A DNA stretch of 64,000 bases from sequence record OR067838.1, one strand, 5' to 3'. The translations under genes and the position numbers were made by a program. Below the pieces are notes generated by a model. That model saw only the letters and a program-made list of their open reading frames with translations. It made no database searches and had not been told where the DNA came from. Shown one piece after another: positions 7,765 to 63,398 of the stretch. This DNA comes from Escherichia phage KKP 3954. Positions within the stretch are counted from its first letter, which is position 1; the number at the start of each line of letters is the position of its first letter.

Positions 7765-7775
7765 CCTATATATTT

Positions 7776-7805
7776 ACTATACTACATTTTACTATTTGTT
7801 GTCAA
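7776..7805 (-). promoter_or_regulatory. sigma70-like promoter upstream of tRNA-Gly
   Basis: Minus strand TTGACA-N18-TATAGT, placing the start site a few nt before tRNA-Gly. Confidence 0.4.
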
Positions 7806-8077: not shown

Positions 8078-8152
8078 TGGTGCTCCCACACTGAATCGAA
8101 CAGAGATCCACGGATTACAAAACCGTTGTAATAGCCATTATACTATAGGAGC
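8078..8152 (-). tRNA. tRNA-Thr (anticodon TGT)
   Basis: CCA encoded; acceptor GCTCCCA/TAGGAGC; T-loop AATCGAA; anticodon loop rc TTTGTAA; single mismatches in T and anticodon stems. Confidence 0.6.
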
Positions 8153-8158
8153 AATGCT

Positions 8159-8235
8159 GGGACTCGGCAGGATTCGATACCTGCAATTCCAGAAGCCTAT
8201 TGGCGACTGGGGGTTTACCTTAACTCTACAAGTCC
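8159..8235 (-). tRNA. tRNA-like element, unresolved fold
   Basis: T-arm-like GCAGG-ATTCGATA-CCTGC (8-nt loop) and acceptor-like complementarity GGACTCG/CAAGTCC; no canonical anticodon arm found by hand. Confidence 0.25.
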
Positions 8236-8242
8236 ATAATTC

Positions 8243-8328
8243 TGGCGATGAGTATAGGATTCGAACCTATATTGTTCTTTCGAACACGGATTAACAGTCC
8301 GCCGCTTAAACCGTTCAGCCAACTCATC
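8243..8328 (-). tRNA. tRNA with anticodon GTT (Asn-type) and an atypical 15-nt variable region
   Basis: CCA encoded; perfect acceptor GATGAGT/ACTCATC; T-arm ATAGG-ATTCGAA-CCTAT; anticodon stem ACGGA/TCCGC, loop rc CTGTTAA; extra GTTC-TTTC-GAAC hairpin. Confidence 0.45.
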
Positions 8329-8334
8329 TTAATT

Positions 8335-8422
8335 TGGTGGTGAGTGATGGAGTCGAACCACCCGAATCGCAATGATAACAGATTTACAGTCTGCCCCGCT
8401 ACCCCTACGGAATTAACTCACC
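8335..8422 (-). tRNA. tRNA-Tyr (anticodon GTA)
   Basis: CCA encoded; acceptor GGTGAGT/ACTCACC; T-loop AGTCGAA; long variable arm (class II); anticodon loop rc CTGTAAA. Confidence 0.7.
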
Positions 8423-8553
8423 TAAATACTAATATTTAAATTCTTTTTAAAATAGCCAGTGTTCGCACCACTAACTATGAGTTATCGGTAAGATGGTGGG
8501 GGGCTATCTTCCGAAAGTTTACTCTATTAAAGTAAGCTACATTAAAAAGAACT

Positions 8554-8639
8554 TGGCGGTAGATGTAGGACTCGAACCTACACGCCGTTTCCGACTACAG
8601 TTTAGCAAACTGTCGTGGCTACCATTTCACCAATCTACC
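8554..8639 (-). tRNA. tRNA-Ser (anticodon GCT)
   Basis: CCA encoded; acceptor GGTAGAT/ATCTACC; T-arm GTAGG-ACTCGAA-CCTAC; anticodon stem ACAGT/ACTGT, loop rc TTGCTAA; long variable arm. Confidence 0.75.
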
Positions 8640-8644
8640 TAATC

Positions 8645-8735
8645 TGGCGGAAGGAGGGAGAGTCGAACTCCCAAGGCTCTTTCAAGCTCGGCGGTTTTCA
8701 AGACCGTTTTCGTCGCCACATCGATTTGCCCTTCC
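8645..8735 (-). tRNA. tRNA-Ser (anticodon TGA)
   Basis: CCA encoded; T-arm GGGAG-AGTCGAA-CTCCC; anticodon stem GCGGT/ACCGT (G-U), loop rc CTTGAAA; long variable arm. Confidence 0.7.
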
Positions 8736-8969
8736 ATACTTATAATCTAACATAAAATAATGATTGTTGTCAATACTTTTTTAAAACATTTTACCATGAA
8801 TGGTGACTCCACCAACCCCCGTTCTCCACGAACGGTGCTCTTCGAGCATTTATGTCTTCTAATATAACCGTGGCCTTTGTTTATAATGTCTGACATACTT
8901 GCCTCATTCTCTGCCACCATGATCAGTAGTGGGTTCAAATCACTTGAGCTAATTCATGTTAAAATGTTC

Positions 8970-9044
8970 TGGTGTCTTTACAAGGAATCGAACCTTGACT
9001 AAGAGTTTAGAAGACTCCTGTGCTATCCATTACACCATAAAGAC
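8970..9044 (-). tRNA. tRNA-Arg (anticodon TCT)
   Basis: CCA encoded; acceptor GTCTTTA/TAAAGAC; T-arm CAAGG-AATCGAA-CCTTG; anticodon loop rc CTTCTAA. Confidence 0.7.
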
Positions 9045-9046
9045 GT

Positions 9047-9121
9047 TGGTGGCCCTGGCTGGTTTCGATCCAGCTACCTATCGGTTATGAGCCGACAGCT
9101 CTCCCATTGAGCTACAGGGCC
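9047..9121 (-). tRNA. tRNA with anticodon CAT (second copy; initiator Met or lysidine-Ile)
   Basis: CCA encoded; acceptor GGCCCTG/CAGGGCC; T-arm GCTGG-TTTCGAT-CCAGC; D-arm GCTC-TCCCATT-GAGC; anticodon loop rc CTCATAA. Confidence 0.7.
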
Positions 9122-46614: not shown

Positions 46615-46620
46615 AACAAA

Positions 46621-46649
46621 GGCACCCAAGTGGGTGCCTTTTCTATTTT
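46621..46649. terminator. bidirectional terminator at convergent gene junction
   Basis: GGCACCC-AAGT-GGGTGCC hairpin with T-runs on both sides. Confidence 0.55.
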
Positions 46650-47639: not shown

Positions 47640-48248
47640 TTACTTAAGTGGTGAGAGAACAATCTCTCGGTTTTTTAAGAACCAAAGCATGTCATCTTGA
47701 TCATAATCTGATCCCTCTGTAGTAGAATTTTTGATAGAATCAAAAAACCAACGAGGTATACCAAAACAACTTCCAGATGACTGCATGTCTTTCTGCGACA
47801 TTTTAAATGTGATTGGAAAATCACAATTATCAATCTCTCGGATATCTGCTGAAGATAAGATTGTAACTTCAACCAGTTCGTCGTTAGATGTAGTATCGTT
47901 GTCTTCCTGAATAATGTCAAATGCTTTTTGCACATCTTTTGCATCTAATGTTAAACCTGTGGCTTTCTGAAAAGCCGAGACAAAAATTAGAGCTTCTTCA
48001 GAGCAAGGGGCTTCCAGCAAATGAGCCATAATAGGTGACAAGCAAATGTTAAGATCTTTGTCATACCAACGAACAATCCACACAGGCGTTGCTCCGTTTT
48101 GTTTGTCACGAGCCAAAATTGTAACGTGCTGACCTTCTTCTGGTATATGATACAAACCAGAAAAACCAGGACCTGTAGTAGATTTTTTGACACGCGCTAC
48201 GTGTCCAACTTCTAAAGGATCTTTACCATCCCAAATCTTCTCTTCCAT
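47640..48248 (-). CDS. hypothetical protein
   Basis: 202 aa; GGAGG RBS. Confidence 0.55.
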   Translation of the reverse strand: MEEKIWDGKDPLEVGHVARVKKSTTGPGFSGLYHIPEEGQHVTILARDKQNGATPVWIVRWYDKDLNICLSPIMAHLLEAPCSEEALIFVSAFQKATGLTLDAKDVQKAFDIIQEDNDTTSNDELVEVTILSSADIREIDNCDFPITFKMSQKDMQSSGSCFGIPRWFFDSIKNSTTEGSDYDQDDMLWFLKNREIVLSPLK

Positions 48249-49130: not shown

Positions 49131-49320
49131 AGTGTTTCTCCTCTGATTCTATTTGGATATAACCTGTGGTTTTGCACGGGTTACACTCGTAAATTTGACC
49201 TACATCCGCCATAACATATCCTGCACCACCACAATAGGGACAAGGCATAGGAGGACAAGGTATGGACGTAGTGATTGTTACGACATTATCAATTTCCAAC
49301 ATTTTCGCCATTATTACCAT
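49114..49320 (-). CDS. small Cys-rich protein (CxxCxGxG zinc-finger-like)
   Basis: 68 aa; CPYCGGAGYV ... CNPCKTTGYI. Confidence 0.45.
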   Translation of the reverse strand: MVIMAKMLEIDNVVTITTSIPCPPMPCPYCGGAGYVMADVGQIYECNPCKTTGYIQIESEEKHYEPKR

Positions 49321-49562
49321 TCCGCTATTAACGTCAAACCAAGTGCATCGTTAAAACGCTCAACATTTGAGTATAGATATGGAGGGGTTATTTGCTCTAA
49401 AATTTGTGCTGCTTCCACTTGGTGTTCTATGTTTTGAGAAGTTCGGGCATAAACTAAGACGCCCATTTTATTCAAAATAAAAACAGAATCAGACCCATCC
49501 AGCTTATCAACGGCTGCATACATTTTAGTCATATTTTCTCCTGGATTACCATTCAGCAACAA
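49314..49562 (-). CDS. hypothetical protein
   Basis: 82 aa. Confidence 0.45.
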   Translation of the reverse strand: MLLNGNPGENMTKMYAAVDKLDGSDSVFILNKMGVLVYARTSQNIEHQVEAAQILEQITPPYLYSNVERFNDALGLTLIAEW

Positions 49563-49761
49563 GACTAGGATTCATAGCAAAAGCTTTGAAAGTTGTTATG
49601 TCATGACTAACATTAAAACTAACACCTTTTACTTTCTCTAGTATTTGAACTTTCGTCTCTCCGTCCCACGGTAGGATGATAACACCATCTACTGTGATCA
49701 ACCACCAATGGTTCTCTCCATCTCGTGAATCTTTTGCTTTGTATAGAAAATTGGAACTCAT
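49546..49761 (-). CDS. hypothetical protein
   Basis: 71 aa; GGAGGAAGA RBS. Confidence 0.45.
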   Translation of the reverse strand: MSSNFLYKAKDSRDGENHWWLITVDGVIILPWDGETKVQILEKVKGVSFNVSHDITTFKAFAMNPSLVAEW

Positions 49762-50121: not shown

Positions 50122-50331
50122 TCAATATAGATCTAATGTTAGACTAACAGTTATCCAACAAACAATAGCAGTCCATATAACAAGTAATGATCTACAAACT
50201 ACATCCCATTCAAATACATTGTATGTTAACCATTCTCCCATCACAACAGAAGAACCCAACCAACATCCAACAACAACTATAATCCAATAAAAGAATCCTA
50301 CAGTAGAGTATACAGCAAAAGCTTTTAACAT
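50122..50331 (-). CDS. small membrane protein
   Basis: 69 aa, two hydrophobic segments; GGAGGA RBS. Confidence 0.45.
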   Translation of the reverse strand: MLKAFAVYSTVGFFYWIIVVVGCWLGSSVVMGEWLTYNVFEWDVVCRSLLVIWTAIVCWITVSLTLDLY

Positions 50332-50896: not shown

Positions 50897-51092
50897 TTCT
50901 ACCTCCTTCAATGCTTTGTGCCATATCATCCCAAGCCATTAGAATGTTTTCCAATAGTTCACGAGGCTCTTTAAACCAAACTTCCATTTCATCAAGAATC
51001 TCGTCCGTGTCGTAAGTATAACCTGGAACACCAAGTTCACATTTCTTAATATAACTTTCTAACCAACGATGATAAGTCTTAGCCCCATTCAT
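50889..51092 (-). CDS. hypothetical protein
   Basis: 67 aa. Confidence 0.45.
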   Translation of the reverse strand: MNGAKTYHRWLESYIKKCELGVPGYTYDTDEILDEMEVWFKEPRELLENILMAWDDMAQSIEGGRNE

Positions 51093-51465
51093 ACTGTGCT
51101 ACCTTTTCTTTTACCCAATCTACGCGATCTTTGTCATAATGTTGAGTGCCAAGGAAAAGACCATTGTGGAAACTTTCCTCACCGAAAGGATAAATTGGAT
51201 CTAAACCATCTTCTTCAAACAACATTTTTAATCTGTTTGATGTAGATTTCTTAGTTTCTGAATTGTAGTTTGTGGTTATAAGCCAATCTTCCAAACAACG
51301 ACACAAGCCTTGACGAGAATCCCAAGGAAAAACACAATCTCCGACAGGAGCTTGTTCCGCCCATTTCAACCAACCTTTAAAAAAGTTATACAGTATATAG
51401 TCTTCAGTGTAATACATTAGCTCCTCCTTTACATATACAATAACACCCCGCAGAACGGGGTGCAA
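51079..51465 (-). CDS. paralog family A member 1 (GLC / PF / WVKDR motifs)
   Basis: 128 aa; FFKGWLKWA, GLCRCL, PIYPFGE, RVDWVKEKV. Confidence 0.55.
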   Translation of the reverse strand: MHPVLRGVIVYVKEELMYYTEDYILYNFFKGWLKWAEQAPVGDCVFPWDSRQGLCRCLEDWLITTNYNSETKKSTSNRLKMLFEEDGLDPIYPFGEESFHNGLFLGTQHYDKDRVDWVKEKVAQYEWG

Positions 51466-51468
51466 CTA

Positions 51469-52080
51469 TTATTTAATCTGTTTAAAAATTTCGTTTGGAA
51501 CGGTACCGTTTAAAATACCTTCTACGATCTCTTGTGCAGATGTGTAAGAGAGTCCAAAAGAAGCTACGCCTAAAATTGCCTCCTTCAAAGGATCTGGTAA
51601 GGGTTCAAAATTACCTGCAACAAATCCTCCCGCACAAGCAGCACCTTCATCATCCCAGAAAACAACTGCTACTTCATTACCATGTGAAGTTGTGCGATGT
51701 GCAAGAACTTCAACTTCAGTACCTTCTTTAGGAATAGAATAAGAGGTGTCCCAGGAGTATCTTTCTAAATCGGGGACAAAAATAACCTTCTCACCTACTG
51801 GCGGCAGTTCACAACGATAATACCAAGAATTTTTTTCGTTCATTGTTTTATTTTCCTCCACGTCTTCAAAAGTAACGATCCAATCGTAGCCGTAAGAAAA
51901 CGGATATTTTAGATCTAAAGAATAAGTTTGACCTAGATCGTCCTCAACAAGAACCATCCTGTCAAAGTTTGCGATGTTAGGATTATGTTTAATGACAGGG
52001 TATGTTTCCCCTACAGTAAATTGTCCCAAATGGTAAAGTTCGTCTCTCCAAGTGATTTTGATACGAGTGCATTGAATCAT
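51469..52080 (-). CDS. hypothetical protein
   Basis: 203 aa. Confidence 0.55.
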   Translation of the reverse strand: MIQCTRIKITWRDELYHLGQFTVGETYPVIKHNPNIANFDRMVLVEDDLGQTYSLDLKYPFSYGYDWIVTFEDVEENKTMNEKNSWYYRCELPPVGEKVIFVPDLERYSWDTSYSIPKEGTEVEVLAHRTTSHGNEVAVVFWDDEGAACAGGFVAGNFEPLPDPLKEAILGVASFGLSYTSAQEIVEGILNGTVPNEIFKQIK

Positions 52081-52084
52081 AAAA

Positions 52085-52327
52085 TTACCCCCAAGAAATA
52101 GCTATGTATCTTACAATGTTTGCACTGTCTAAAGCCATGTTTGCACCACACCCACGCTCGCGCCAGTAACTAACAATACCTTCACAAATACTCTCTTGTA
52201 TCTTCTTATCATTTGGCATTTCTAATATAAGACTTGGGTTGTGGATGTTTATGTTATAATATCCTTCCTCTGCGGCTTGAGCTACCAATTTACTCACTTT
52301 TTCAAAATACAGGGGAATTAGTGGCAT
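52085..52327 (-). CDS. hypothetical protein (YWRxxGC motif, possible family C)
   Basis: 80 aa; IVSYWRERGCGAN. Confidence 0.45.
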   Translation of the reverse strand: MPLIPLYFEKVSKLVAQAAEEGYYNINIHNPSLILEMPNDKKIQESICEGIVSYWRERGCGANMALDSANIVRYIAISWG

Positions 52328-52357
52328 CTGCTATTGTTTTTAAGGTTTGTCTATCCA

Positions 52358-52756
52358 TTATTCTGCCTCATCATAGAAGAAATCCAACTCTTGTTCCAGT
52401 TGTTTAACTCGATCCTTAACCCACTGTACACGTTTTTCATTAAACATGCAACGTTTTTCCTTACACTCTTGCTCAAAAGATTTTGCTGTGTTAAATGGGA
52501 AAGTTGTATCTAAGCCAGCGTTTTCAAAACTGGCTAATTGCATACCATAAACAGAATATGCTAAAGAATGCTCGGCCCGAAATTCATCACTTATATACAT
52601 ACGTAGACCTCGGCATAAGCCAACATCAGCGTAACCACTTTCTCTTGGAAAGAGACGGAGGTGTTCTAACCAATTATTATAGAAATCTAAAAGAATCCTC
52701 TTACACTTCAAATCGATTGTCATAAAAAGTTTCTCCTTCATCGAACAAGTTGGCAA
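52358..52756 (-). CDS. paralog family A member 2
   Basis: 132 aa; FYNNWLEHL, GLCRGL, TFPFN, RVQWVKDRV. Confidence 0.55.
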   Translation of the reverse strand: MPTCSMKEKLFMTIDLKCKRILLDFYNNWLEHLRLFPRESGYADVGLCRGLRMYISDEFRAEHSLAYSVYGMQLASFENAGLDTTFPFNTAKSFEQECKEKRCMFNEKRVQWVKDRVKQLEQELDFFYDEAE

Positions 52757-53123
52757 GATTGTTCACGGCAATCTGGGTGGAAAGAAGACAACTGTTTGCA
52801 GACACATAAGCACGAGCTATTTTGTAAACATAGGCTTTCGTATTACAATTGTCTAGGATCGGAAGACTTTCGTCGATAGCATCTATAACACTAAACATCA
52901 CATCTAAAACTTTAATGGTGAGTGTTGTATTTGTATCTTCGTAACCTTTTTCAATCCGACCTGAATAGAAAGCATAGTCCTCAACAGTTCGTCGTTTAAA
53001 CTGGCGCATAAAATCGGAACCATCTGTAGCAGAATTGAACAAATTTTCAAAAAATACCTCCCATCCGGCAAAAAGGGCTGACAGCATGATTAAGTGATCT
53101 ACAGATTCATTTTCTTGTTTCAT
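52701..53123 (-). CDS. hypothetical protein
   Basis: 140 aa. Confidence 0.5.
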   Translation of the reverse strand: MKQENESVDHLIMLSALFAGWEVFFENLFNSATDGSDFMRQFKRRTVEDYAFYSGRIEKGYEDTNTTLTIKVLDVMFSVIDAIDESLPILDNCNTKAYVYKIARAYVSANSCLLSTQIAVNNLANLFDEGETFYDNRFEV

Positions 53124-53131
53124 ATCCTCTC

Positions 53132-53809
53132 CTATTTAATGTTCAATCTAGCACACAAGCGAGAAACAGTTTTAGCATCCCACTTACCACCACGTGCTGT
53201 TGCGATTTTCTTACTATTGAATTTTTCAGCAATAGTTTTGTAAGGTGTATTTAAATCTCTAAGGATTTCTAAGCGTTCACGGAATGTCTCTGCAAAAGCG
53301 TCTGCTTTAACAGAATTGTATTCCATTTTTCCTTTTCTACGTGCAGCAGCAGTTTTAGGATTAGCACTGCCTAATAAAACACCTTTGCTTTTTGCTACAG
53401 CAAGACCCTTTTTAATACGATCAGCAATACCTCTAACTTCTTGTTCAGCCAGAACAGACAGAAGCTGTATAACCATTTTATCTGCGTCTGGCATGATGGC
53501 TATCTTAACATCGATCATTTCTAGAAGAGTTGCTACGGAGGCGTTGTTACGACCCAAGCGGTCAACTTTAGCTACCAATAAAGTTGCTCCGGTAGCTTTA
53601 CACATTTCAACCGCTTTAACCAGTTCCTTACGTTGCTTCCAATCGCCCTTACCCGAATAGTATTCAGAAAATTGACCAATAACTTCCGCATCAGGTACAG
53701 AGTCTAAGAAGTAACGGATATCGTTCTCTTGGCTCTCCATACCATATTGTGCCTCACCTTTTTTCTGTTTAGAAAGACGACTGTAAACAACAAACTTTTT
53801 CATAACCAC
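53132..53809 (-). CDS. small serine recombinase (resolvase/invertase family)
   Basis: 225 aa; catalytic VYSRLSKQ ... SQ, VAKVDRLGRN, C-terminal HTH-like region. Confidence 0.7.
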   Translation of the reverse strand: MVMKKFVVYSRLSKQKKGEAQYGMESQENDIRYFLDSVPDAEVIGQFSEYYSGKGDWKQRKELVKAVEMCKATGATLLVAKVDRLGRNNASVATLLEMIDVKIAIMPDADKMVIQLLSVLAEQEVRGIADRIKKGLAVAKSKGVLLGSANPKTAAARRKGKMEYNSVKADAFAETFRERLEILRDLNTPYKTIAEKFNSKKIATARGGKWDAKTVSRLCARLNIK

Positions 53810-53873
53810 TCCTAAACCATTGCTGTATTCTCACTTTACAAAACGAATAAACACTTGTCAAGGTATTTATTAT

Positions 53874-54086
53874 TTACAGCCATTCTACTCTTAAGCAGTA
53901 TTCCTCGACATGTTGTTTACGCTTGTTTTTGTCTATGTAAGTGTATTCAACAAATGTCCCAAGATAGTCCTTGTCTACATTGTGTGGGCTATTGATTGGA
54001 CATTTAGTACGACAAACCCGTTGCCACTGACGAAGAATTACGGCTTTGTTTTTAGGATCAAACGGATGAGGGTAATGTACCTTCAT
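53874..54086 (-). CDS. hypothetical protein
   Basis: 70 aa. Confidence 0.45.
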   Translation of the reverse strand: MKVHYPHPFDPKNKAVILRQWQRVCRTKCPINSPHNVDKDYLGTFVEYTYIDKNKRKQHVEEYCLRVEWL

Positions 54087-54410
54087 TCACGCCCCCTGTT
54101 TTAGTCGAAAAATATTTTGAATAACTAGAGATGTATAGTTATCACTTAGTCCCATAAGTTCTACTTCCAAGTTTCGAATATCTTCCACCGTAGGAGGATA
54201 TGTTGGTAAAAATGCTTGAGCATTGCCAGATCCAACCTCATTGCTGTAAGCAGTTGTAAAATTGTAAGATACAAAACATGAAACACCTTTTTGTCGGTAC
54301 CCGATTAATCGACGAATACACCAGATAAGAGCCAAACCTATGAGAACACCTCCTAAACCAGCTAACAAGAAGGATAAGTTTATAATAGCTTCGTTAACAA
54401 CTGCTTGCAT
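54087..54410 (-). CDS. hypothetical membrane protein
   Basis: 107 aa; N-terminal TM segment LAGLGGVLIGLALIW. Confidence 0.5.
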   Translation of the reverse strand: MQAVVNEAIINLSFLLAGLGGVLIGLALIWCIRRLIGYRQKGVSCFVSYNFTTAYSNEVGSGNAQAFLPTYPPTVEDIRNLEVELMGLSDNYTSLVIQNIFRLKQGA

Positions 54411-54420
54411 TCTTTTCTCC

Positions 54421-54720
54421 TTAGTTATGTAAACCCAAATGTGCTACAACTTCTCTACGATAAGATAACTGCATAGCAATTTTATAGCCAGGATGAAAAC
54501 CATTTACATCAATATCATCAAACCAAACCTCAAACGAACCGTGCTTAAGAGTCATTAAATTGATATACCATTCAATAGTATAATGATCGTCGGCAATACC
54601 TTCGATGTAAAATTCTCGGCAACAGTGAGATAAGTCTTCACTTGTTTCACGTTTCCAATCCTTAATAGCCCCTTTCTCTTTGGCTTTGTTCAGAATGTTG
54701 ATCAGGTCTTCAACTTGCAT
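54421..54720 (-). CDS. hypothetical protein
   Basis: 99 aa. Confidence 0.5.
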   Translation of the reverse strand: MQVEDLINILNKAKEKGAIKDWKRETSEDLSHCCREFYIEGIADDHYTIEWYINLMTLKHGSFEVWFDDIDVNGFHPGYKIAMQLSYRREVVAHLGLHN

Positions 54721-54773
54721 ATCTATCTCCTTTGTGGTTAATCTTTATATTTTAAATATTATACCGTCTTCTA

Positions 54774-55226
54774 TCAAATAGCCTCTTTCTCTAAAACAAC
54801 TCTTTGGATCACAACATCTTCAATGTTTGCCAAACAATGACCCAAAGTCAATCCTGCTTTGAAAGGTGCTTGTAGTTTGGACTCAGCTTCTACGCGAATA
54901 GAATGTTCCGCTCCGCACATGGTGTAATCTACACGGTAAACGTTTAAACCTAAGAACATAGATTCTTCTTCCTCACAACAAGGATTGAGTTCAGCCCATT
55001 CCCAAGCATCTCCTTCTAAAGCAAACGGGGTGTTGTAATTGAAGAAAGTGCAGCGCGGATACTCCCCGTTGAAAGAATCTTTCAACAAGATATATTTCTT
55101 ACCGTTTGCGTGGAAGAGTTCTCCTTTGATAACCTTGCCTACAAGGATATCACTGTTAGTAGAACGGGTGCAGATAAACTTTTTCATGATTTTCTCCTCT
55201 TTGTTTTGATGAGATGAGTATGACAA
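54774..55226 (-). CDS. hypothetical protein
   Basis: 150 aa. Confidence 0.5.
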   Translation of the reverse strand: MSYSSHQNKEEKIMKKFICTRSTNSDILVGKVIKGELFHANGKKYILLKDSFNGEYPRCTFFNYNTPFALEGDAWEWAELNPCCEEEESMFLGLNVYRVDYTMCGAEHSIRVEAESKLQAPFKAGLTLGHCLANIEDVVIQRVVLEKEAI

Positions 55227-55249
55227 AGACAGATCCTTCTGTCAACGAT

Positions 55250-55489
55250 TTATTTCCACTCGCCTTGATGTTCTTTGATCTCGTAAGAGTAGTATTCGAA
55301 CATGCTCATACAAACCACACCTGCCATTTCTAAACAAAAAGGTTTGTCATTATAGAAGGCACTTACTGCTCTTCCTGCTTTATGTGCTGCTTCTTCGGAA
55401 TCACAACCGCAAACGTTATGCACCCAAGGATCAGGGCCATCATATTTAAGACGTACAATCCACATGATCATTCTTCCATCTCGAACCAT
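55250..55489 (-). CDS. hypothetical protein
   Basis: 79 aa. Confidence 0.45.
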   Translation of the reverse strand: MVRDGRMIMWIVRLKYDGPDPWVHNVCGCDSEEAAHKAGRAVSAFYNDKPFCLEMAGVVCMSMFEYYSYEIKEHQGEWK

Positions 55490-55695
55490 TCAGGGAACAC
55501 TTTGTGGAAGACACGTGTTGTTTCTAAGAGAAATTCCAACTCTTTTTCCAAATCTGCGTTCCAACCGTTTATTTTAACACGGATTGCCAATGCACTTGCA
55601 CGGCGACTCAATTCTTGACAGATTGGATCACGCAGAACTATTGAGTCATAAAACTGACAAACAGCCTCAAGTTCATACCAGTTATAATCCGACAT
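55468..55695 (-). CDS. hypothetical protein
   Basis: 75 aa. Confidence 0.45.
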   Translation of the reverse strand: MSDYNWYELEAVCQFYDSIVLRDPICQELSRRASALAIRVKINGWNADLEKELEFLLETTRVFHKVFPEWFEMEE

Positions 55696-56021
55696 TATTC
55701 ATCCTCCTCTGCAATACGATCTCTTACCCAATTAATCCTGTCCACGTTCAGGTGACATACCTTTGCATCTGATTCTAAGACATATGCATCGTAGTTCTCA
55801 TTGAAAGGGAGTTCTTGACTCAACCCTTTGTGGTAAAACTGTGCGTGCATTTCATCTGACAAGGTTGTTATAATGGGGTTGTAATTACCTCTGTGCACAT
55901 AATCGAACAAGTTGGCACACAAACCACAATCCCGCCGAAAAGGTTTACCATCAGGAGCACCAACATCAATCCATGCTAGATAAATTTTATAAAACTCCAT
56001 CAAATCTTTACTTGTTTTCAT
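55695..56021 (-). CDS. paralog family A member 3
   Basis: 108 aa; FYKIYLAWI, GLCANL, ELPFNE, RINWVRDRI. Confidence 0.55.
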   Translation of the reverse strand: MKTSKDLMEFYKIYLAWIDVGAPDGKPFRRDCGLCANLFDYVHRGNYNPIITTLSDEMHAQFYHKGLSQELPFNENYDAYVLESDAKVCHLNVDRINWVRDRIAEEDE

Positions 56022-56092
56022 TATTTTACCTCGATCACGTTGATAAATACATCTTCACGACAATCTTTATCGTCCCCGTAGATTTGACCTAA

Positions 56093-56437
56093 TCATACAC
56101 ATGCGTTAAAGGCGGATTTTGCGGGAATTTGATATTTACGGACAGGACCATTGTCTTTTGTGTAGGAAACCTCAAAGAGACGAATAGTGTCATCCTCAAT
56201 TACATGAAACCGACCACAATCCATAATCAAAGAGATACACAGGGTATCCCCTTCTTCGTCTGTAATATAAAACAAACCTGGATTATCTATAACTTGGGAA
56301 GCTAGATACTGCTTACCCTCTTTAAGGAACTCGACAGAAGACTCTGCACATAAAAGTTTAATCATTTTTCTCCTCCTTATCTGTGTTGATAATGTATGTA
56401 TACCATACATAAAAGAAATGTCAAGGTTTATCGACAC
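56093..56437 (-). CDS. hypothetical protein
   Basis: 114 aa. Confidence 0.5.
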   Translation of the reverse strand: MSINLDISFMYGIHTLSTQIRRRKMIKLLCAESSVEFLKEGKQYLASQVIDNPGLFYITDEEGDTLCISLIMDCGRFHVIEDDTIRLFEVSYTKDNGPVRKYQIPAKSAFNACV

Positions 56438-56628
56438 AGATAGTTGTAACGATCCGCTTTATCCTCTGCTTCAGCAAAGTCAGCAATCAAGGAAGTTTTG
56501 AGTTCTTCCAACTCTTTCACCCAAGAGTCGTAATCGTTCTGTGTTTCTCCAATAGTTTGGAGAAAACAATCGTCGTAGCCAATAGACATGGCTAACTCGA
56601 TAATACGTTCCAGTTTTTCTTCCATCAC
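56428..56628 (-). CDS. hypothetical protein
   Basis: 66 aa. Confidence 0.45.
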   Translation of the reverse strand: MMEEKLERIIELAMSIGYDDCFLQTIGETQNDYDSWVKELEELKTSLIADFAEAEDKADRYNYLCR

Positions 56629-56987
56629 TTCTCTCCTTCTACAGACTTCTGTTTAACATAAAAGTAAGCACCACGAGCAAGATACAAATCATGTTCAATA
56701 TCGCTCACAGGAAAACCATCTGGATTTTTAAAACCATCTTCTACAGCCAAAATGAGAGATCGTAAACTGATAGCTAACAACTCCATTTGATCTTGTAGTT
56801 TTCTATTTTCTGCATAAAGGTTTTTGCATTTTTGTTCTGCATTTTTCCATTGTTCTAATGCGTGATCATAGTTTCGCATAAGAATAGCTTTTTCTTGTTC
56901 ACGTTTAAAGGTTTCTTCACAAATGAAACCTGTGCCTAAACCAGTTTCTTCATCTTTGACAAACATTTCAACAAAATCTTTAGACAT
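56625..56987 (-). CDS. hypothetical coiled-coil protein
   Basis: Track ORF 56625..57119; AGGAGA RBS supports start MSKDFVEMF. Confidence 0.45.
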   Translation of the reverse strand: MSKDFVEMFVKDEETGLGTGFICEETFKREQEKAILMRNYDHALEQWKNAEQKCKNLYAENRKLQDQMELLAISLRSLILAVEDGFKNPDGFPVSDIEHDLYLARGAYFYVKQKSVEGEK

Positions 56988-56988
56988 A

Positions 56989-57252
56989 TTATCTCCTATT
57001 TGCTTTTGGATACTCCCAACCCTCTGGGAGATCTTCTTTACACATCCACTCAAAAGGCCAGCGACAATAACTGTGCCACTTTCCATCGAGATACAAGCAA
57101 TCTTCATCCACTGGTCCACATGGGTTGATAACTACAACACACCCTTTCGCTCGCCAATATTGAACTATTTCAGGGTAAAAACAAGAAACGTCGGTCCACT
57201 CCCAAATACGCTCATCATTCAAACGATATGCTGCTGGCAATGTTTCTTCCAT
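56989..57252 (-). CDS. hypothetical protein (YWRxxGC motif, possible family C)
   Basis: 87 aa; IVQYWRAKGCVVV. Confidence 0.45.
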   Translation of the reverse strand: MEETLPAAYRLNDERIWEWTDVSCFYPEIVQYWRAKGCVVVINPCGPVDEDCLYLDGKWHSYCRWPFEWMCKEDLPEGWEYPKANRR

Positions 57253-57256
57253 ATTA

Positions 57257-57703
57257 TTAAACCTCTGTCAAAGAGAAACGCCAATCCTTACTACTACCTA
57301 CGCCAAGGAAGATATAGTCTCCGGTACTAACGGAAATACGCCAAGCGGGAATCCAATCAGGAATCTCTGGCTTATGGCTGTAACCATAACGATCACCATT
57401 CGAGTCTGTTGCAATATAATTAACAAATTCAGGAACATCTAAAGTTTCACCTTGATACTCTACACGCTTGAAGCCATCTTCCACTTCTTTCTCACCTTCT
57501 ACCAGACAAGCAAGAAGTTTGATGTGAGGGCAAGTGAAATCTTGTCCTGGATAACGTGAACGGATATCAGTTAACAATGCGATTACAGCATCCGATAACT
57601 CTTTATAATCCTCATATCTTACAAATGTGCCTTCTGTCGGATCATCAGGACACAAACGCCAAGCATCGTTGCAGTTTACAGCGTAATGCCTCACTTTAGT
57701 CAT
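57257..57703 (-). CDS. hypothetical protein
   Basis: 148 aa. Confidence 0.5.
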   Translation of the reverse strand: MTKVRHYAVNCNDAWRLCPDDPTEGTFVRYEDYKELSDAVIALLTDIRSRYPGQDFTCPHIKLLACLVEGEKEVEDGFKRVEYQGETLDVPEFVNYIATDSNGDRYGYSHKPEIPDWIPAWRISVSTGDYIFLGVGSSKDWRFSLTEV

Positions 57704-57713
57704 AAATCCCCCC

Positions 57714-58112
57714 TTATCGTTGCGTACAATCAGCTTCTAGAGTAAGAACATTCGTTATTGTTTTATCATTTTTTAGAAATGCAAACCAAGCTAAAGTATC
57801 TCGATACTCTGTGCGCATCATCACAACTTCGGTAGTGCCAATAAACTGCTGTGAACCGTACATAGAACTTCCATCTTTACTCTTTCCTCCTGTGTTTTGA
57901 AGAATACCGCTCATCAAAGCACCACCCGAATTTTTAAGGATAAAGGAGTTGTCTTTATTAATGACAACAGAAGCCATTTTCTTAGGACCAGAAATCACTT
58001 CACCTTTCAGATTTTTAACAACTACGTCTGATACACACTCATAAACTTGAGATGCATTCGCTGTTCCAAGAGATGCAATGAGTAACAATAAACCTACGAT
58101 AATCTTTTTCAT
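57714..58112 (-). CDS. secreted/periplasmic hypothetical protein
   Basis: 132 aa; signal peptide MKKIIVGLLLLIASLGTANA; followed by hairpin plus T-run. Confidence 0.55.
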   Translation of the reverse strand: MKKIIVGLLLLIASLGTANASQVYECVSDVVVKNLKGEVISGPKKMASVVINKDNSFILKNSGGALMSGILQNTGGKSKDGSSMYGSQQFIGTTEVVMMRTEYRDTLAWFAFLKNDKTITNVLTLEADCTQR

Positions 58113-58207
58113 ATAAACTCTCCTCTTTATTTACCCGACGCGCCCCTGTTGGGCGGAAAGGGTTATACGCAAAATTTTTAGCTCCAATCGTCGGGTGTCC
58201 CGACTCC

Positions 58208-58414
58208 TTACGCTTTTAATGTTTTAACAGAATGACAAGCTTTGCAAACCATAACTGGAACAAGTTCATCTCCATTATCCGCATAAATCACTGTTTTCTT
58301 CATTCTGCTACCACATGAACAATACACTGTATGATCTACTGGAATATTAAATATTCCGTAATCACTTTCATACTGTTTCTTACACATGGATACTGCTTTT
58401 GTAAAACAAGACAT
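58208..58414 (-). CDS. small Cys-rich protein
   Basis: 68 aa; CSCGSR ... CKACH. Confidence 0.45.
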   Translation of the reverse strand: MSCFTKAVSMCKKQYESDYGIFNIPVDHTVYCSCGSRMKKTVIYADNGDELVPVMVCKACHSVKTLKA

Positions 58415-58416
58415 AC

Positions 58417-58638
58417 CTACTCCGCAAGAACATTCACTTCGTCAGAGAAAAATACGTAATCACAACCTTCCCAAACATCTTCTTCAAACCACTCCCATCC
58501 CTCAACTTTGGACATTTCTTCTATCGTAACAAAGAATGTTGCCATATCCTCACTAACAAGATGTGCTTCAACAACAAAAGGAATCTGAACATTCTCAAAA
58601 CCAACATAACCCAATACATCACAAACTCTAATTTTCAT
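58417..58638 (-). CDS. paralog family B member 1
   Basis: 73 aa; EWFEEDVWEGCDYVFFSDE. Confidence 0.5.
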   Translation of the reverse strand: MKIRVCDVLGYVGFENVQIPFVVEAHLVSEDMATFFVTIEEMSKVEGWEWFEEDVWEGCDYVFFSDEVNVLAE

Positions 58639-58639
58639 A

Positions 58640-58840
58640 TTATGCTCCTTTGTAGATTATGTTGGTGCGTTCACACTCTGCCACCAGCAAGCGATTAGCA
58701 ATGTTGTCCATAGGAACATCAATCTCTACGCTCCAGGCGTTGATATACACTTCTTCAATCTTTGCTCCAAGCATTTGTGCGATCAAGGCAACAGCCCCAG
58801 CATATTCAAGTTTAATCTCAATTACCATTTTGCACCTCAA
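58640..58840 (-). CDS. hypothetical protein
   Basis: 66 aa. Confidence 0.45.
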   Translation of the reverse strand: MRCKMVIEIKLEYAGAVALIAQMLGAKIEEVYINAWSVEIDVPMDNIANRLLVAECERTNIIYKGA

Positions 58841-58842
58841 GG

Positions 58843-59079
58843 TTATTTATCTTGCTTGTATCTTACAAGGCGATCACACTCCAGGTCAAGAAATTTCTCC
58901 GCATTTCGTTCATGTTTGAGCACAATACATTGTTCTTTCAAGTCTGTAGCTCTTTGCTGCGCGGCTCCTGGGTCAAAATCCCAAAGCCATGCAGCGAAAA
59001 GAACCACCATAACAATTGCCAAGAAAACAAACACTATAGGCATTGCACATCCTCCTGTGTGGCATGATCTTTTACCCAT
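58843..59079 (-). CDS. hypothetical membrane protein
   Basis: 78 aa; TM segment IVFVFLAIVMVVLFAAWLW. Confidence 0.45.
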   Translation of the reverse strand: MGKRSCHTGGCAMPIVFVFLAIVMVVLFAAWLWDFDPGAAQQRATDLKEQCIVLKHERNAEKFLDLECDRLVRYKQDK

Positions 59080-59348
59080 TTTATACGAGCAGCATTCAAA
59101 TGTAGCAGCCCGTTTCTTTGTGCAAAATCATATTTAAACCAATCCCCATCATCAAACGGGTATTCTTCAGACAAACCTGCTTCGCGGAATTGCATTTGCA
59201 TTTCATAATTTAGGTCATCATAACCACCAGACCAAAGATATAGGCAGCTACATAACCCTTTATCATGCCAGAAAGGATTATTATCTGGAGCACCAGCTAA
59301 CAGCCAGTTATGATATGCCTGATAAAATTCTTTAAGTTCCTCTGACAT
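59034..59348 (-). CDS. paralog family A member 4
   Basis: 104 aa; FYQAYHNWL, GLCSCL, EYPFDD, RIKWVKDH. Confidence 0.55.
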   Translation of the reverse strand: MSEELKEFYQAYHNWLLAGAPDNNPFWHDKGLCSCLYLWSGGYDDLNYEMQMQFREAGLSEEYPFDDGDWFKYDFAQRNGLLHLNAARIKWVKDHATQEDVQCL

Positions 59349-59591
59349 TTAACCTCCTGTGTGCAGTGTTGAAAGATACACAGCAAAAGCATTCTCGGCT
59401 GTTTTCACCTCCTCTTCAAGATCTTCACGCTCTGCTGGTGTTAGTGCATTTCGCACAGCAGCGTCTGCTTCTCGGATTTTTCTTACTAAACGTGAAACAT
59501 CTTTCAGTTGTTGAAAAGTAGCCATAATCTTTCTCCTGGAATCTCTGTGATCTCCCCTTTGCGGGTTTCGAAGATGGTATCCCCTTTTCAA
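59349..59591 (-). CDS. hypothetical protein
   Basis: 80 aa. Confidence 0.45.
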   Translation of the reverse strand: MKRGYHLRNPQRGDHRDSRRKIMATFQQLKDVSRLVRKIREADAAVRNALTPAEREDLEEEVKTAENAFAVYLSTLHTGG

Positions 59592-59806
59592 TTAGTCGGA
59601 TTTTCATATCGTGCTTCCTTCAATGCGAGTAATGCGTTCACCAGATTATCAACACCTTGATCATCCAGTGCGATAACATCGAAGTTAAACCCTGTATCAG
59701 TTGGGACTTTACGTTTTATGGTGTAATAGTCTCCTTCATGACGTTCAACATACGCGTATGGGTAACTGCTGTTTGGATCATGTTTCACGCGAATAGATGT
59801 TTTCAT
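59588..59806 (-). CDS. hypothetical protein
   Basis: 72 aa. Confidence 0.45.
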   Translation of the reverse strand: MKTSIRVKHDPNSSYPYAYVERHEGDYYTIKRKVPTDTGFNFDVIALDDQGVDNLVNALLALKEARYENPTN

Positions 59807-59821
59807 GTTTTGTTCTCCTCT

Positions 59822-60121
59822 TTAGTCAAACCAGTCGTATTCAGAAGGGTAACGAGCGTAGTTTGGCTTATACCCCAGTCTTTTCATCTTAACAGACATA
59901 CGAGTGAAGCCAAAGGTTGTTTTGCCCTTAGACATAAACTTCTTCCCGCTCTTCATTGGCTTCTTAGGGTTTTTGATCGTCTGGTGTAACGCTCGCGCAA
60001 GCCACAGAGTGTATGCGCTCGGCACTTGATTAACTTTCATCTTGTTACCTTTCATCGAAACCTCCTTAGTGAACTTCGTGCCAAGTGCCAAACTCTTCTG
60101 CTGATACTTTAGGAACGGCAT
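59822..60121 (-). CDS. hypothetical basic protein
   Basis: 99 aa, Lys-rich. Confidence 0.45.
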   Translation of the reverse strand: MPFLKYQQKSLALGTKFTKEVSMKGNKMKVNQVPSAYTLWLARALHQTIKNPKKPMKSGKKFMSKGKTTFGFTRMSVKMKRLGYKPNYARYPSEYDWFD

Positions 60122-60293
60122 GAGTTTCTCGGTATTTGTTTAAAGCTTTCTCAACGGCTGTAGCAAAAACATCTTGTGATTTATGAGGCATATAATAAGA
60201 GCGCCCCATATATGCTACTGCATCACGTAATTCTTCTGCTTGCTCTTGTGTAACTGTCAATGTGATAGTAACCATTATTTCACCTCCGACCAA
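60066..60293 (-). CDS. hypothetical protein
   Basis: 75 aa. Confidence 0.4.
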   Translation of the reverse strand: MVGGEIMVTITLTVTQEQAEELRDAVAYMGRSYYMPHKSQDVFATAVEKALNKYRETHAVPKVSAEEFGTWHEVH

Positions 60294-60574
60294 TCAATAG
60301 TGATCCACTCGTATGCCCCATTCAGATCCATTTCTTTATAAACAATAAGCCCACGCTCACGAAGAATTGCTACTGCTTCATCCATCCACTTCACCTGATT
60401 GTAGATCGCCCCTGGGTGGGTAGGGGAATTATCCAGACCAAAATCAGATGGCGTGAAATTTCTTGAAGAGTTTCCCGCTCGTGCTTCAGCAAAACATGTC
60501 TCGATCACTTCTTCAACAGGGAAGTTGAAGGAAGCTTCTTTTGCAATACGGCGTAACTGTTCGGTCAGATTCAT
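60275..60574 (-). CDS. hypothetical protein
   Basis: 99 aa. Confidence 0.5.
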   Translation of the reverse strand: MNLTEQLRRIAKEASFNFPVEEVIETCFAEARAGNSSRNFTPSDFGLDNSPTHPGAIYNQVKWMDEAVAILRERGLIVYKEMDLNGAYEWITIDWSEVK

Positions 60575-60601
60575 CTTATTCTCCTTTCGTTGTGCGAAAC
60601 A

Positions 60602-61039
60602 TTATAACAGATCTAATGCTTTCAATTCTTCTTTCAATGATTCAGGCAAGTCACATTCAATGTCAATCAGGGATAACAAGTGACCAACAATGCCTTCCAG
60701 ATGTTGATACTCACTATAACTTATAAATTCAGAATTGTAAACAGAAACATCCTTAGTTTCTTTCACAACTTCCCCCGCAGACACGCACATAAAAAAGTTA
60801 CGCTCTCCGCGAGCTAACAATATCTCCCAACTTCTGAACGGATACTGTCCAGCTTCAATAATATCTCCGCTGTCCAATAAAGTCAATGAGCAAACAGACC
60901 CTGATTCACTAACATCTTCGACGCGGAAACAAGACCCTTCAATCAAAGCTGCCATTTTGAAATTTTCATCAGAGATCATAGAGAAAGCTTCACAGGCAGC
61001 TTTAGTTTTGAAACAGTAAACAGCATTAACTTTAAACAT
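60602..61039 (-). CDS. hypothetical protein
   Basis: 145 aa. Confidence 0.5.
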   Translation of the reverse strand: MFKVNAVYCFKTKAACEAFSMISDENFKMAALIEGSCFRVEDVSESGSVCSLTLLDSGDIIEAGQYPFRSWEILLARGERNFFMCVSAGEVVKETKDVSVYNSEFISYSEYQHLEGIVGHLLSLIDIECDLPESLKEELKALDLL

Positions 61040-61051
61040 AACATTCCCCTT

Positions 61052-61510
61052 TTAAACAAAAGATACGCCGATGGTAGCAACAACCAAACGTTTATAAACT
61101 TCAACCTCTTCTGTAGGATTAGCCATTTTATGCTCTGCTGCTTCTTTCAAAGCTTCTTCATAACTTTGAGATCCAGAGATACAGGTGTCACCAGTCATTA
61201 CAACATACCACTCTTCTTTTGTTGTATCAACAGGCTCTTCTTGGGGTTTTCCACGACCACCACGAACACCGCCGTCAACAAAATAATCTATATGAGCAGA
61301 ATTGATTATGTAACGATCCCCATCGCCAGCAGTGATAATACCGTCCCTCATACCTATCACAACCATTGACAAGATATTACCATTTGTATCAGTGCTCAAC
61401 ACCTCGAAAAAATTCTCTCCGATGATAGCTGCAATACTGTTATCAAAGGTAGAATATAGTCGCATATAATCCTCATCCTGGAAACGGTAGACATGACCTT
61501 CTTTAAACAT
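61052..61510 (-). CDS. hypothetical protein
   Basis: 152 aa. Confidence 0.5.
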   Translation of the reverse strand: MFKEGHVYRFQDEDYMRLYSTFDNSIAAIIGENFFEVLSTDTNGNILSMVVIGMRDGIITAGDGDRYIINSAHIDYFVDGGVRGGRGKPQEEPVDTTKEEWYVVMTGDTCISGSQSYEEALKEAAEHKMANPTEEVEVYKRLVVATIGVSFV

Positions 61511-61964
61511 TGTTCTCTCCTCCTAACCCATCATACCATTTCAAAGCGTCTTTTGGAAGCATACCAAAATCTTCTTTCAGTTCTTTTTCAATCTCTTCTT
61601 GCATTTCCATCAGCATTTTCAATTGACGAACTTTTTTGTGCATAGCCACATTCCTTTCATTAAGGTTTGTCACTACATTATTTGCACGACTCGGTGGAAA
61701 CGACAAAGGTTTCACGGGAAGATAATCTTCGATATTATCTAGCGCGTTACGAAAATTATGATCCAAGAAACGCACATCTACACGATTGTAATCGGCAGCT
61801 ACAACAGTGAACACTTTAAACGGCACATTGGATAAAGTATGTTGCACACAGACAATACCCATATTGCCTTCAATTTTACTATTAACTTCCAGCAAACCTG
61901 TATGAGCACTAACATAATCGTGAACACATTGCACATAAGCTGCCAGTATAGAGAATTGTCTCAT
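61503..61964 (-). CDS. hypothetical protein
   Basis: 153 aa. Confidence 0.5.
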   Translation of the reverse strand: MRQFSILAAYVQCVHDYVSAHTGLLEVNSKIEGNMGIVCVQHTLSNVPFKVFTVVAADYNRVDVRFLDHNFRNALDNIEDYLPVKPLSFPPSRANNVVTNLNERNVAMHKKVRQLKMLMEMQEEIEKELKEDFGMLPKDALKWYDGLGGENNV

Positions 61965-62182
61965 TTTCTACCTCCCCATAATGCTAACATTTTATTGAAA
62001 ATGGAAACGCGTCGTGCGCGAGATGCCATATCATAATTCATTCTTTCCGTCTCTGCAAGAAATTGATCTACTGTAATCAACGCTTCTGTCTTCTCTTTCA
62101 GAGTTTGCATATTCATCCATTCACATTCAGAAGTACCAATTATCGAAATACAAACTATCGAGAAGATCCATTGCTGCTTCAT
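61961..62182 (-). CDS. hypothetical protein
   Basis: 73 aa. Confidence 0.45.
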   Translation of the reverse strand: MKQQWIFSIVCISIIGTSECEWMNMQTLKEKTEALITVDQFLAETERMNYDMASRARRVSIFNKMLALWGGRK

Positions 62183-62213
62183 TCTGTTGTGGTGTGATCA
62201 TTGCACACAACCC

Positions 62214-62444
62214 TTAATAGACAATTTCATATTCGTGAGGAAAGAAAACATAATCTTCCCCTTCTCGTGCATCTATCTCGTCCCAAAACCATTCCTGCAC
62301 TTCCATCATCTTCGAGAATCGCACATGAGCAAGCCCACTGTATTCCACAGTAGCTTCCAACACAAGTGGAAATTTTGCATGTGCCAATCCTTTATAACCA
62401 CCATCATTCTCAATACGAATTTTCATGCGTTTCATGTTATGCAT
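62214..62444 (-). CDS. paralog family B member 2
   Basis: 76 aa; EWFWDEIDAREGEDYVFFPHE. Confidence 0.5.
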   Translation of the reverse strand: MHNMKRMKIRIENDGGYKGLAHAKFPLVLEATVEYSGLAHVRFSKMMEVQEWFWDEIDAREGEDYVFFPHEYEIVY

Positions 62445-62646
62445 CCTTCAGACCCTTAATAAAGTAACGACCAACCAGATTCCCTCGGAAGTATTCGTTA
62501 ATGAAATCGATAACACACGTTTCACTGCCTGTCACAACGGACGGCTTAAAGTTTTGGAATTCTACAGCTACACGGCTGGCTTTAGCCAGTGCTTGCACAC
62601 GTGTAGGATCAGTCAAGAACATTGTGACAGTTTTCAAATTCTTCAT
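62437..62646 (-). CDS. hypothetical protein
   Basis: 69 aa. Confidence 0.45.
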   Translation of the reverse strand: MKNLKTVTMFLTDPTRVQALAKASRVAVEFQNFKPSVVTGSETCVIDFINEYFRGNLVGRYFIKGLKDA

Positions 62647-62695: not shown

Positions 62696-63079
62696 TTATT
62701 CAATGCAAGCATTATTTACATCTTCAATCCGATCTTTCACCCACTGAAGACGTAACGTGTTGGTATGACACGCCAAGTTTATACACTCTGAAAGGTAATC
62801 CATGCAATCCACATTGAACGGAAGATTGTAGTCCAGCCCTGCACATGTAAATTGTTTCCTCATTTCATATTTCAAACGGTCCAACAAATGATCACGCCAT
62901 TTTCTATCTTCTTCTCTAGGTGTCTCACCAACAAAATCATCTACATAATCTACCAGACAACCACATAAGCCACTCGTTGTGCGATTCATTGCAGGATAGT
63001 TGGCAATCCATGCTTTATAGAAGCGAAGCAATGTTGCACTGCTCAACGGAATACTATTTGTCATCTTTCTCTCCTTCAT
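62696..63079 (-). CDS. paralog family A member 5
   Basis: 127 aa; FYKAWIANY, GLCGCL, NLPFNVD, RLQWVKDRI. Confidence 0.55.
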   Translation of the reverse strand: MKERKMTNSIPLSSATLLRFYKAWIANYPAMNRTTSGLCGCLVDYVDDFVGETPREEDRKWRDHLLDRLKYEMRKQFTCAGLDYNLPFNVDCMDYLSECINLACHTNTLRLQWVKDRIEDVNNACIE

Positions 63080-63398
63080 AATCTTGAATTCTATCTAGCA
63101 CCCATTGTATACGATGTTTGTTTTTATGGCAAATATGTTTTTTATGTTCAAAGGTGTATTCCTCATAACCACCTTCATTAAACGGGAAATTGTAATCCAA
63201 TCCTGCACCAATAAACTGTGATTTCATCTCCTGTTGTAGACGAGGTAACAGTTCATCAGGGTATGTTCCCTCTACATACTTAATCAAACATATGCACAAA
63301 CCACTCGTTGTGTGACCTTCTACCTCACCAGCAAGCCAAGCTTTGTAAAACTTCATTAGACGTAAACTACTTAACGGAACATTTTTACTCTCTTGCAT
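63054..63398 (-). CDS. paralog family A member 6
   Basis: 114 aa; FYKAWLAGE, GLCICL, NFPFNEG, RIQWVLDRI; overlaps member 5 by 26 nt. Confidence 0.55.
   Translation of the reverse strand: MQESKNVPLSSLRLMKFYKAWLAGEVEGHTTSGLCICLIKYVEGTYPDELLPRLQQEMKSQFIGAGLDYNFPFNEGGYEEYTFEHKKHICHKNKHRIQWVLDRIQDYEGEKDDK

Follow-up and report, generated by a model that had tools for sequence, protein, structure and literature searches.

The interval 52085-62444 of a 64,000-nucleotide stretch of DNA from Escherichia phage KKP 3954 (sequence record OR067838.1; "the window" means this whole stretch) is best read, with a probability of roughly three in four, as part of the early block of a Phapecoctavirus, a run of small minus-strand genes in which one pair of similar proteins is real and ancient and a second proposed pair is unrelated. 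Pair 1 consists of copy A (58417-58638) and copy B (62214-62444), which both belong to a single domain family specific to phages and diverged from each other long ago. Pair 2 consists of 2a (52085-52327) and 2b (56989-57252), two separate small lineage-restricted proteins that are not related and share by chance a short motif at a helix end. A preliminary description of this DNA had presented both as small paralog pairs. The four open reading frames (ORFs) that it named are all present on the minus strand, and their counterparts in Escherichia phage vB_Ec-G1 are annotated coding sequences (EcG1_255, 240, 236 and 222).

A megablast search with 52000-62500 returned 92 phage records, and the top matches belong to Phapecoctavirus (phAPEC8-like, Stephanstirmvirinae); vB_Ec-G1 matches with 97.5% identity over 97% of the query. 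GC (guanine-cytosine) skew and ORF orientation delimit a block, from about 46.6 to 64 kb, that is read wholly from the minus strand; in vB_Ec-G1 the matching block is annotated as a string of short 'hypothetical protein' genes and one DNA invertase. The 55 minus-strand ORFs of the block were compared all against all by BLASTP (1485 pairs); the level expected by chance for Smith-Waterman scores was taken from 100 composition-preserving shuffles of all 55 block proteins, and a profile-based all-against-all comparison was made with hhalign, using alignments drawn from six related loci.

The comparison of all proteins in the block places pair 1 well beyond chance and pair 2 at the level of chance. 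Aligned as a single pair by BLASTP, copy A (73 amino acids) and copy B (76 amino acids) share 27 of 71 positions (38%), with 71 of the 73 residues of copy A aligned and an expectation value (E) of 1e-13; in the all-against-all comparison E is 7e-12. Their Smith-Waterman score is 114, the best score for any pair in the 100 shuffled proteomes being 71, and hhalign gives them a probability of 100%. Both proteins match phrog_15322 end to end (copy A over residues 1-73, E 6.6e-44; copy B over residues 7-76, E 2.1e-41) and, more weakly, phrog_13367. A hidden Markov model (HMM) of the domain recognizes each copy at about 1e-30, and the rest of the window comes nowhere near. At the level of predicted structure, the model of copy A superimposes on the BFVD model of the copy B ortholog from phage ZCKP1 (A0A2Z4QD94) with a template modelling (TM) score of 0.84, a root-mean-square deviation (rmsd) of 1.8 A and E 6e-6. 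The paralogy proposed for pair 1 is thus upheld by BLASTP, by the Smith-Waterman shuffles and by phrog_15322. As to the two motifs on which the proposal was built, EG-x-DYVFF-x-x-E is exact in both proteins; the EWF motif stands one residue off register in the optimal alignment, where the tryptophans of WEWFEE in copy A and QEWFWD in copy B are what align.

Copies A and B belong to a family that a profile search was needed to see, since a single-sequence search of a 5.8-billion-protein database gave just four clusters for pair 1 (and one for 2a). Searching 1.84 billion representatives with the pair 1 profile (E<=1e-3) gave 48 proteins, two of which are spurious repeat proteins; most matches cover the full 1-72 domain, which is located N-terminally. 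The family consensus is MKIxLxxxGGYxGLxxVxFPVxVEA...V...G...D...G..Y.F...EVEVV, with P20 invariant and M1, V37, G47, Y61, F63 and E67 almost so. About half of the relatives are stand-alone proteins of about 70 amino acids, as is copy A, while the remaining ones, 110-250 amino acids long, carry the module at the N-terminus followed by a conserved helical C-terminal tail ending in KMIEEGV; this tail domain was sought in the window and is absent from it. In three proteins (P0020, P0030 and P0039) the module occurs in tandem, as two domains. The metagenomic relatives, tail-bearing and tandem forms included, also match phrog_15322 and phrog_13367; their source is metagenomic contigs, and the named members of the family bear no label beyond 'hypothetical protein'. 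Another common trait is acidity: 39 of 40 aligned sequences have a net charge of -2 to -15 over the first 75 residues, the other being a chimeric protein, P0024, with +1.

The AlphaFold2 model of copy A, built with the alignment of 40 sequences, has a predicted local distance difference test score (pLDDT) of 95.9 and a predicted TM score of 0.83. It contains strands at residues 2-5, 21-24, 34-37, 61-64 and 68-72 and a short helix at 39-42, and two long conserved loops bear the GYxGL..FP and G...D..G signatures. The pair 1 domain is predicted with high confidence to be an acidic, five-stranded small barrel of about 70 amino acids, which looks SH3-like.

The relationship between the two copies is distant. 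Copy A is closest to P0003 (71% identity) and then to the tail-bearing P0006 (58%), copy B to P0009 (66%) and then to P0011 and P0012 (51% each), whereas copies A and B are 37% identical to each other and each ranks only 10th or 14th of 39 for the other. In a neighbour-joining tree (about 70 columns, no bootstrap) the copies fall in separate deep clades. DNA repeats joining the paralogs, or repeated intergenic elements, were sought, and short matches of the size expected by chance were all that came up. The presence and number of the genes also differ among phages: Justusliebigvirus alia has a single stand-alone protein with the domain, in Klebsiella phage phi1_175008 two copies, each with a tail, are neighbours, and copy B is absent from some Phapecoctavirus records and present in three places in Shigella phage SF1-1. 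Since each copy is nearer to proteins of other phages, the clades are separate, no DNA repeat joins the genes and their presence and copy number vary, pair 1 is, judging from these sequences, an old divergence with ongoing gain and loss and not a recent duplication. The idea that the paralogs are a sign of recent or rapid duplication is not borne out by two copies that are 37% identical, lack a common DNA repeat and stand nearer to other phages.

The alternative that survives best concerns the route by which the two copies came together. The pair 1 genes may have been acquired separately, by recombination with other phages that have members of this domain family, and not by duplication inside the genome; this is a real possibility, although less likely than not. 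It would agree with the greater closeness of copies A and B to metagenomic phage proteins (58% to P0006 and 66% to P0009) than to each other, with the patchy occurrence of copy B among Phapecoctavirus records, and with two chimeric genes of relatives, P0024 and P0086, which show that genes of the block do recombine. However, the nearest metagenomic relatives look like members of the same phage group, so that the pair 1 subclades could be old paralogs inherited vertically within Stephanstirmvirinae; phi1_175008 likewise has two adjacent copies, and the trees are too short to decide.

A third, divergent copy of the pair 1 domain is probably present on the same strand at 47658-47879, where it would form residues 124-197, approximately, at the C-terminus of a 202-amino-acid protein (47640-48248). 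Support for it is moderate. Comparison of this C-terminal domain with the pair 1 domain by hhalign gives a probability of 56% and E 1e-4 over 67 columns that span the whole domain, and local hhalign runs give 66-71%; the pair 1 HMM finds the alia ortholog of the protein with E 0.0026 and the window protein itself with E 0.26. The domain sequence of the alia ortholog, EVILLNDGMFSGLASVDFPITL, is near the pair 1 consensus. At the other end of the protein, residues 2-65 resemble residues 82-146 of the product of 51469-52080 (hhalign 86.6%; BLASTP 31% over 64 amino acids). This likeness and the pair-1-like C-terminal domain together make 47640-48248 look like a two-domain mosaic.

As regards function, the pair 1 domain may be a protein-binding module that is made early in infection and docks on a host or phage partner, and such docking would serve host takeover or counter-defence. 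Copies A and B would then have diverged toward different partners. The versions that this phage carries are the two stand-alone proteins, both without the tail, and probably also the C-terminal domain of 47640-48248. A broader and decidedly speculative proposal is that the domain is an undescribed, widespread, modular one of phages, with copies that might counteract distinct host factors or defence proteins; its range would comprise Stephanstirmvirinae and, by predicted structure, T1-like and T4-like phages. If this were true, the differences in pair 1 copy number among close phages would mirror an arms race. An unlikely alternative is that the acidic pair 1 proteins mimic nucleic acid or serve as decoys, with restriction proteins or other defence proteins that bind DNA as possible targets. 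Such a role would suit the strong negative charge found family-wide (net -14 for the 73 amino acids of copy A, and -4 to -15 for most members) and the location of the genes in an early accessory block; yet copy B has only -5, the conserved signal is largely hydrophobic or glycine and reads as core and loops, and fold searches of PDB and BFVD showed no similarity to known DNA mimics.

The second proposed pair has a different standing. The string V-x-YWR-x-x-GC does occur literally in both 2a and 2b, as the preliminary description had reported; the paralogy drawn from it does not hold, the similarity being at the level of chance. Aligned as a single pair, the two proteins share 11 identities in 27 columns, with a gap of five residues (BLASTP, E 6e-4). 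In the all-against-all comparison E is 0.039, and other unrelated pairs do equally well or better. Their Smith-Waterman score of 48 ranks 21st of the 1485 pairs; a shuffled proteome contains on average 1.14 pairs that score as high, and 68% of the shuffles have one or more. Since a score of 48 is reached about once per shuffled proteome, the similarity lies within chance.

Family-level evidence points the same way. The hhalign comparisons of 2a and 2b give 16% over 17 columns and 34% over 11 columns, and the two proteins match different PHROGs, phrog_24570 and phrog_27881 respectively, with no family in common. Diverged orthologs of 2a were taken from PsgM04F, phiWec179 and an IMG/VR contig (37-41% identity), and those of 2b from Klebsiella phage 05F01, an IMG/VR contig and 33 database clusters. 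In the 2a orthologs the motif reads DK(L/F)RSQGC, with Y and W not conserved; in the 2b orthologs it reads YWSDKGC, YWKSKGAT or YYMEKGIS, where YW and G are kept and R and C vary. Thus G alone is conserved in both families. When 2a and 2b were folded as one chain together with 2b homologs, the 2b half reached a pLDDT of 81-97 and the 2a half 39-63. That 2a and 2b are very remote homologs sharing an ancestral helix-loop-strand element (h-x-YWR-x-x-GC) is therefore highly improbable: the motif, the 11 identities in 27 columns with their single-pair E-value, the position of the motif in the top hhalign alignment between the two profiles and its predicted place at a helix end in both proteins (with low confidence in 2a) would speak for it, but the score is one expected in each shuffled proteome, the hhalign values stay at 16-34% while the aligned region shrinks to 11-17 columns, the PHROGs differ, and the matching positions are unlike those conserved in the families, YW being lost in 2a orthologs and R and C in 2b orthologs.

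Taken individually, 2a is an 80-amino-acid ORF whose family, phrog_24570, is confined to this phage group. Its DNA alignment with vB_Ec-G1 shows a 1-nucleotide insertion near 52312 (CCCC-G to CCCCTG): translation from the ancestral ATG (52356-52358) would now stop at a TGA after 18 codons, and the ORF as listed begins instead at 52327, with an ATG in another frame. Among the matches listed (30 of 70 records), all relatives of 2a match residues 7-80 only. The insertion may be a true frameshift or may have arisen from an error in sequencing. Another candidate relative of 2a, the product of 60275-60574, has a similar C-terminus (LRERG...W) and gave 72% over 42 columns with hhalign, yet 10% on curated alignments; with results in such conflict, a relationship between the two is not claimed.

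Protein 2b (87 amino acids, phrog_27881) represents a domain family separate from that of 2a, with the consensus ETLPAAYR..YPEI..YW..KG..PCGPVDEDCLYL.GKW.SYCR.P.EW..PKAK.RR. Its homologs form 33 clusters, in some of which it is fused to other N-terminal domains: it is found alone or behind three kinds of N-terminal part, namely a domain of 68 amino acids, a segment that resembles a zinc finger (CxxCxGxG) and, in P0086, the N-terminal half of the protein homologous to the product of 57257-57703, the neighbouring gene. Protein 2b itself is 92% identical to P0078 and 58% to P0079. The 2b half of the combined model consists of short helices, a helix over YPEIVQYWR, three strands forming a sheet and a final short helix, and comparison with PDB folds gave no match (best E 1.3). 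In Klebsiella phage 05F01 (L004, 3967-4847) the homolog of 2b is annotated as a 158-amino-acid protein with a 68-amino-acid N-terminal domain, and directly downstream of it comes a pair 1 family member that bears the tail.

Two suggestions about 2b were rejected and one label stayed unconfirmed. Zinc binding was considered on account of C38, C45, C52, H60 and C63; only C45 and C63 are conserved across the homologs, some of which, P0079/L009 among them, have other residues in place of C38, C52 and H60. A C-type-lectin-like fold, which would call for a conserved C-terminal cysteine pattern (EDC...W.D..C...C), was also considered; profile matches to DC-SIGN in PDB have E of only 0.1-0.7, C52 and C71 are not conserved, and the fold search gave no match. 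The label PF26882.1 appears in the precomputed annotation of P0079 and of some 2b homologs (family phrog_27881); for 2b and P0079 a search of a local Pfam-A found no such model even at E<=10.

For the block as a whole, the preliminary description had assigned ten or more of some fifty ORFs to duplicated families. That count holds, at 12 of about 55 ORFs, with a different membership: pair 2 drops out and two further pairs come in. The largest contribution is family A, with six members, all on the minus strand (51079-51465, 52358-52756, 55695-56021, 59034-59348, 62696-63079 and 63054-63398), for which all 15 of 15 pairs reach 100% in hhalign and BLASTP E-values go as low as 7e-31; the two members that were scanned, 55695-56021 and 63054-63398, match phrog_2510. 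To these are added the two copies of pair 1 and two pairs that had been overlooked, both likewise on the minus strand. The first is the adjacent pair 60602-61039 and 61052-61510, which have in common an N-terminal domain of about 80 amino acids (MFK..VY.F...); residues 1-83 of the former and 1-77 of the latter align with an hhalign probability of 99%, and both proteins match phrog_3710, phrog_622 and phrog_5804. The second is the overlapping tandem pair 49314-49562 and 49546-49761, remote paralogs with 96.9% in hhalign over 69 columns; by BLASTP their identity is only 24% (E 0.033).

Several observations concern the surroundings of the adjacent pair. The annotation of vB_Ec-G1 labels the homolog of 60602-61039 as 'goF mRNA metabolism modulator', after T4 goF, a putative assignment; searches against Pfam and NCBIfam gave no match. 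Between its homologs of 60602-61039 and 61052-61510, vB_Ec-G1 has an extra gene of 786 nucleotides with the same goF label, which is absent from the window. In addition, the DNA at the 5' end of 50122-50331 resembles the starts of 60602-61039 and 61052-61510 (repeat D1).

The accessory character that the preliminary description gave to the block is supported by comparison with relatives, both distant and close. Only 25 of the 55 block ORFs (45%) have a homolog in Justusliebigvirus alia, with a median identity of 39%, compared with 81% of ORFs at 65% identity in the plus-strand region for replication and nucleotide metabolism and 85% of ORFs at 74% identity in the first part of the window (1-10.3 kb); the comparison left out alia 50-70 kb, which can only understate the figures outside the block. 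In alignments within the genus, the block breaks into 3-7 pieces with 92-98% coverage (92 records), whereas a replication-gene stretch of equal length aligns in one piece with 100% coverage (141 records). Two metagenomic proteins illustrate a further kind of change: in P0024 a copy-B-like stretch of 54 N-terminal amino acids is followed by the C-terminus of a protein like that of 61052-61510, and in P0086 a 2b homolog follows the N-terminal half of a homolog of 57257-57703, so that here neighbouring genes are fused. These fusions show how the block gets reshuffled.

Some results weigh against parts of the overall reading. Early expression of the block was deduced from gene order and strand alone, and a scan with the sigma-70 consensus found 57 sites against 52.5 expected, that is, no enrichment. 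The deep separation of copies A and B comes from short neighbour-joining trees without bootstrap, and the low confidence of the 2a half of the combined model rules out a structural comparison with 2b. For the SH3-like assignment, a Foldseek search of PDB with the copy A model places SH3 domains first, weakly (best E 0.066). As for function, none of the four proteins has a match above noise in Pfam, NCBIfam or PADLOC, sequence searches of PDB gave no significant match, and targeted literature searches (phAPEC8 paralogs; PF26882) returned nothing relevant.

Other features of the window were recorded along the way. At the edge of the block, where plus- and minus-strand genes converge, a GC-rich hairpin, perfect over 10 bp and with T-runs on either strand (46618-46641), looks like a bidirectional terminator; it alone stands out in a promoter and terminator scan. 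Inside the block, 53132-53809 on the minus strand encodes a serine recombinase, named DNA invertase or resolvase in the labels of relatives, whose homolog in phage alia (57% identity) has a different neighbourhood and the opposite strand relative to the block. The minus-strand gene 57714-58112 encodes a 132-amino-acid protein with an N-terminal segment resembling a signal peptide (MKKIIVGLLLLIASLGTANA), and no diverged homolog of it was found among the other phages compared. Ten transfer RNA genes (two for Met and one each for Ile, Pro, Gln, Gly, Thr, Asn, Ser and Arg) are clustered on the minus strand at 7198-9121.

The analysis thus corrects the census of paralogs, in which one proposed pair is dropped, two unlisted pairs are gained and the pair 1 domain probably has a third copy, and it shows that the duplicated families of the block are old and modular rather than recent duplications. 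It also brings out an uncharacterised phage domain of about 70 amino acids that can be folded confidently and is missing from Pfam; a family description could be seeded from the structural model and the 40-sequence alignment.

Among known folds, the pair 1 model is most like SH3-like barrels (eukaryotic SH3 domains; PDB 4fss, 8hlo and 7pvq among others), which are similar to it in size and in having five short strands, long loops that join strand 1 to 2 and strand 3 to 4, and a short turn of helix ahead of strand 4. The matches are weak (E 0.07-0.6, TM 0.4-0.5, rmsd 5-7 A, 5-17% identity), and no sequence relationship was found; the likeness, drawn from a predicted model, is a resemblance at the level of fold class alone. 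Closer counterparts are found among phage proteins. In BFVD the pair 1 fold recurs at TM 0.65-0.84 in uncharacterised proteins of ZCKP1, RB49, Merlin, Sf20, T1-like phages and VpV262. The small proteins of T1-like (Tls gp04, SRT8, pSf-1, CS01) and T4-like phages (RB49, Merlin, Sf20) have models at TM 0.65-0.8, and tblastn links the N-terminal half of copy B with ORFs of T1-like phages at E of about 1e-2 to 1e-3; their sequence identity to pair 1, however, is 14-27%, and they are themselves uncharacterised. Likewise, phrog_15322 and phrog_13367 are PHROGs without assigned function, and the pair 1 domain is covered by no Pfam or NCBIfam model.

Multigene families are typical of the accessory early regions of large lytic phages. 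Apart from the pair 1 domain family, the result is ordinary for such a region: with nothing specific to distinguish it, the block in the window follows the usual pattern, which it resembles in its many short ORFs on the same strand, small paralog families, differences in gene presence and absence, and fusions.

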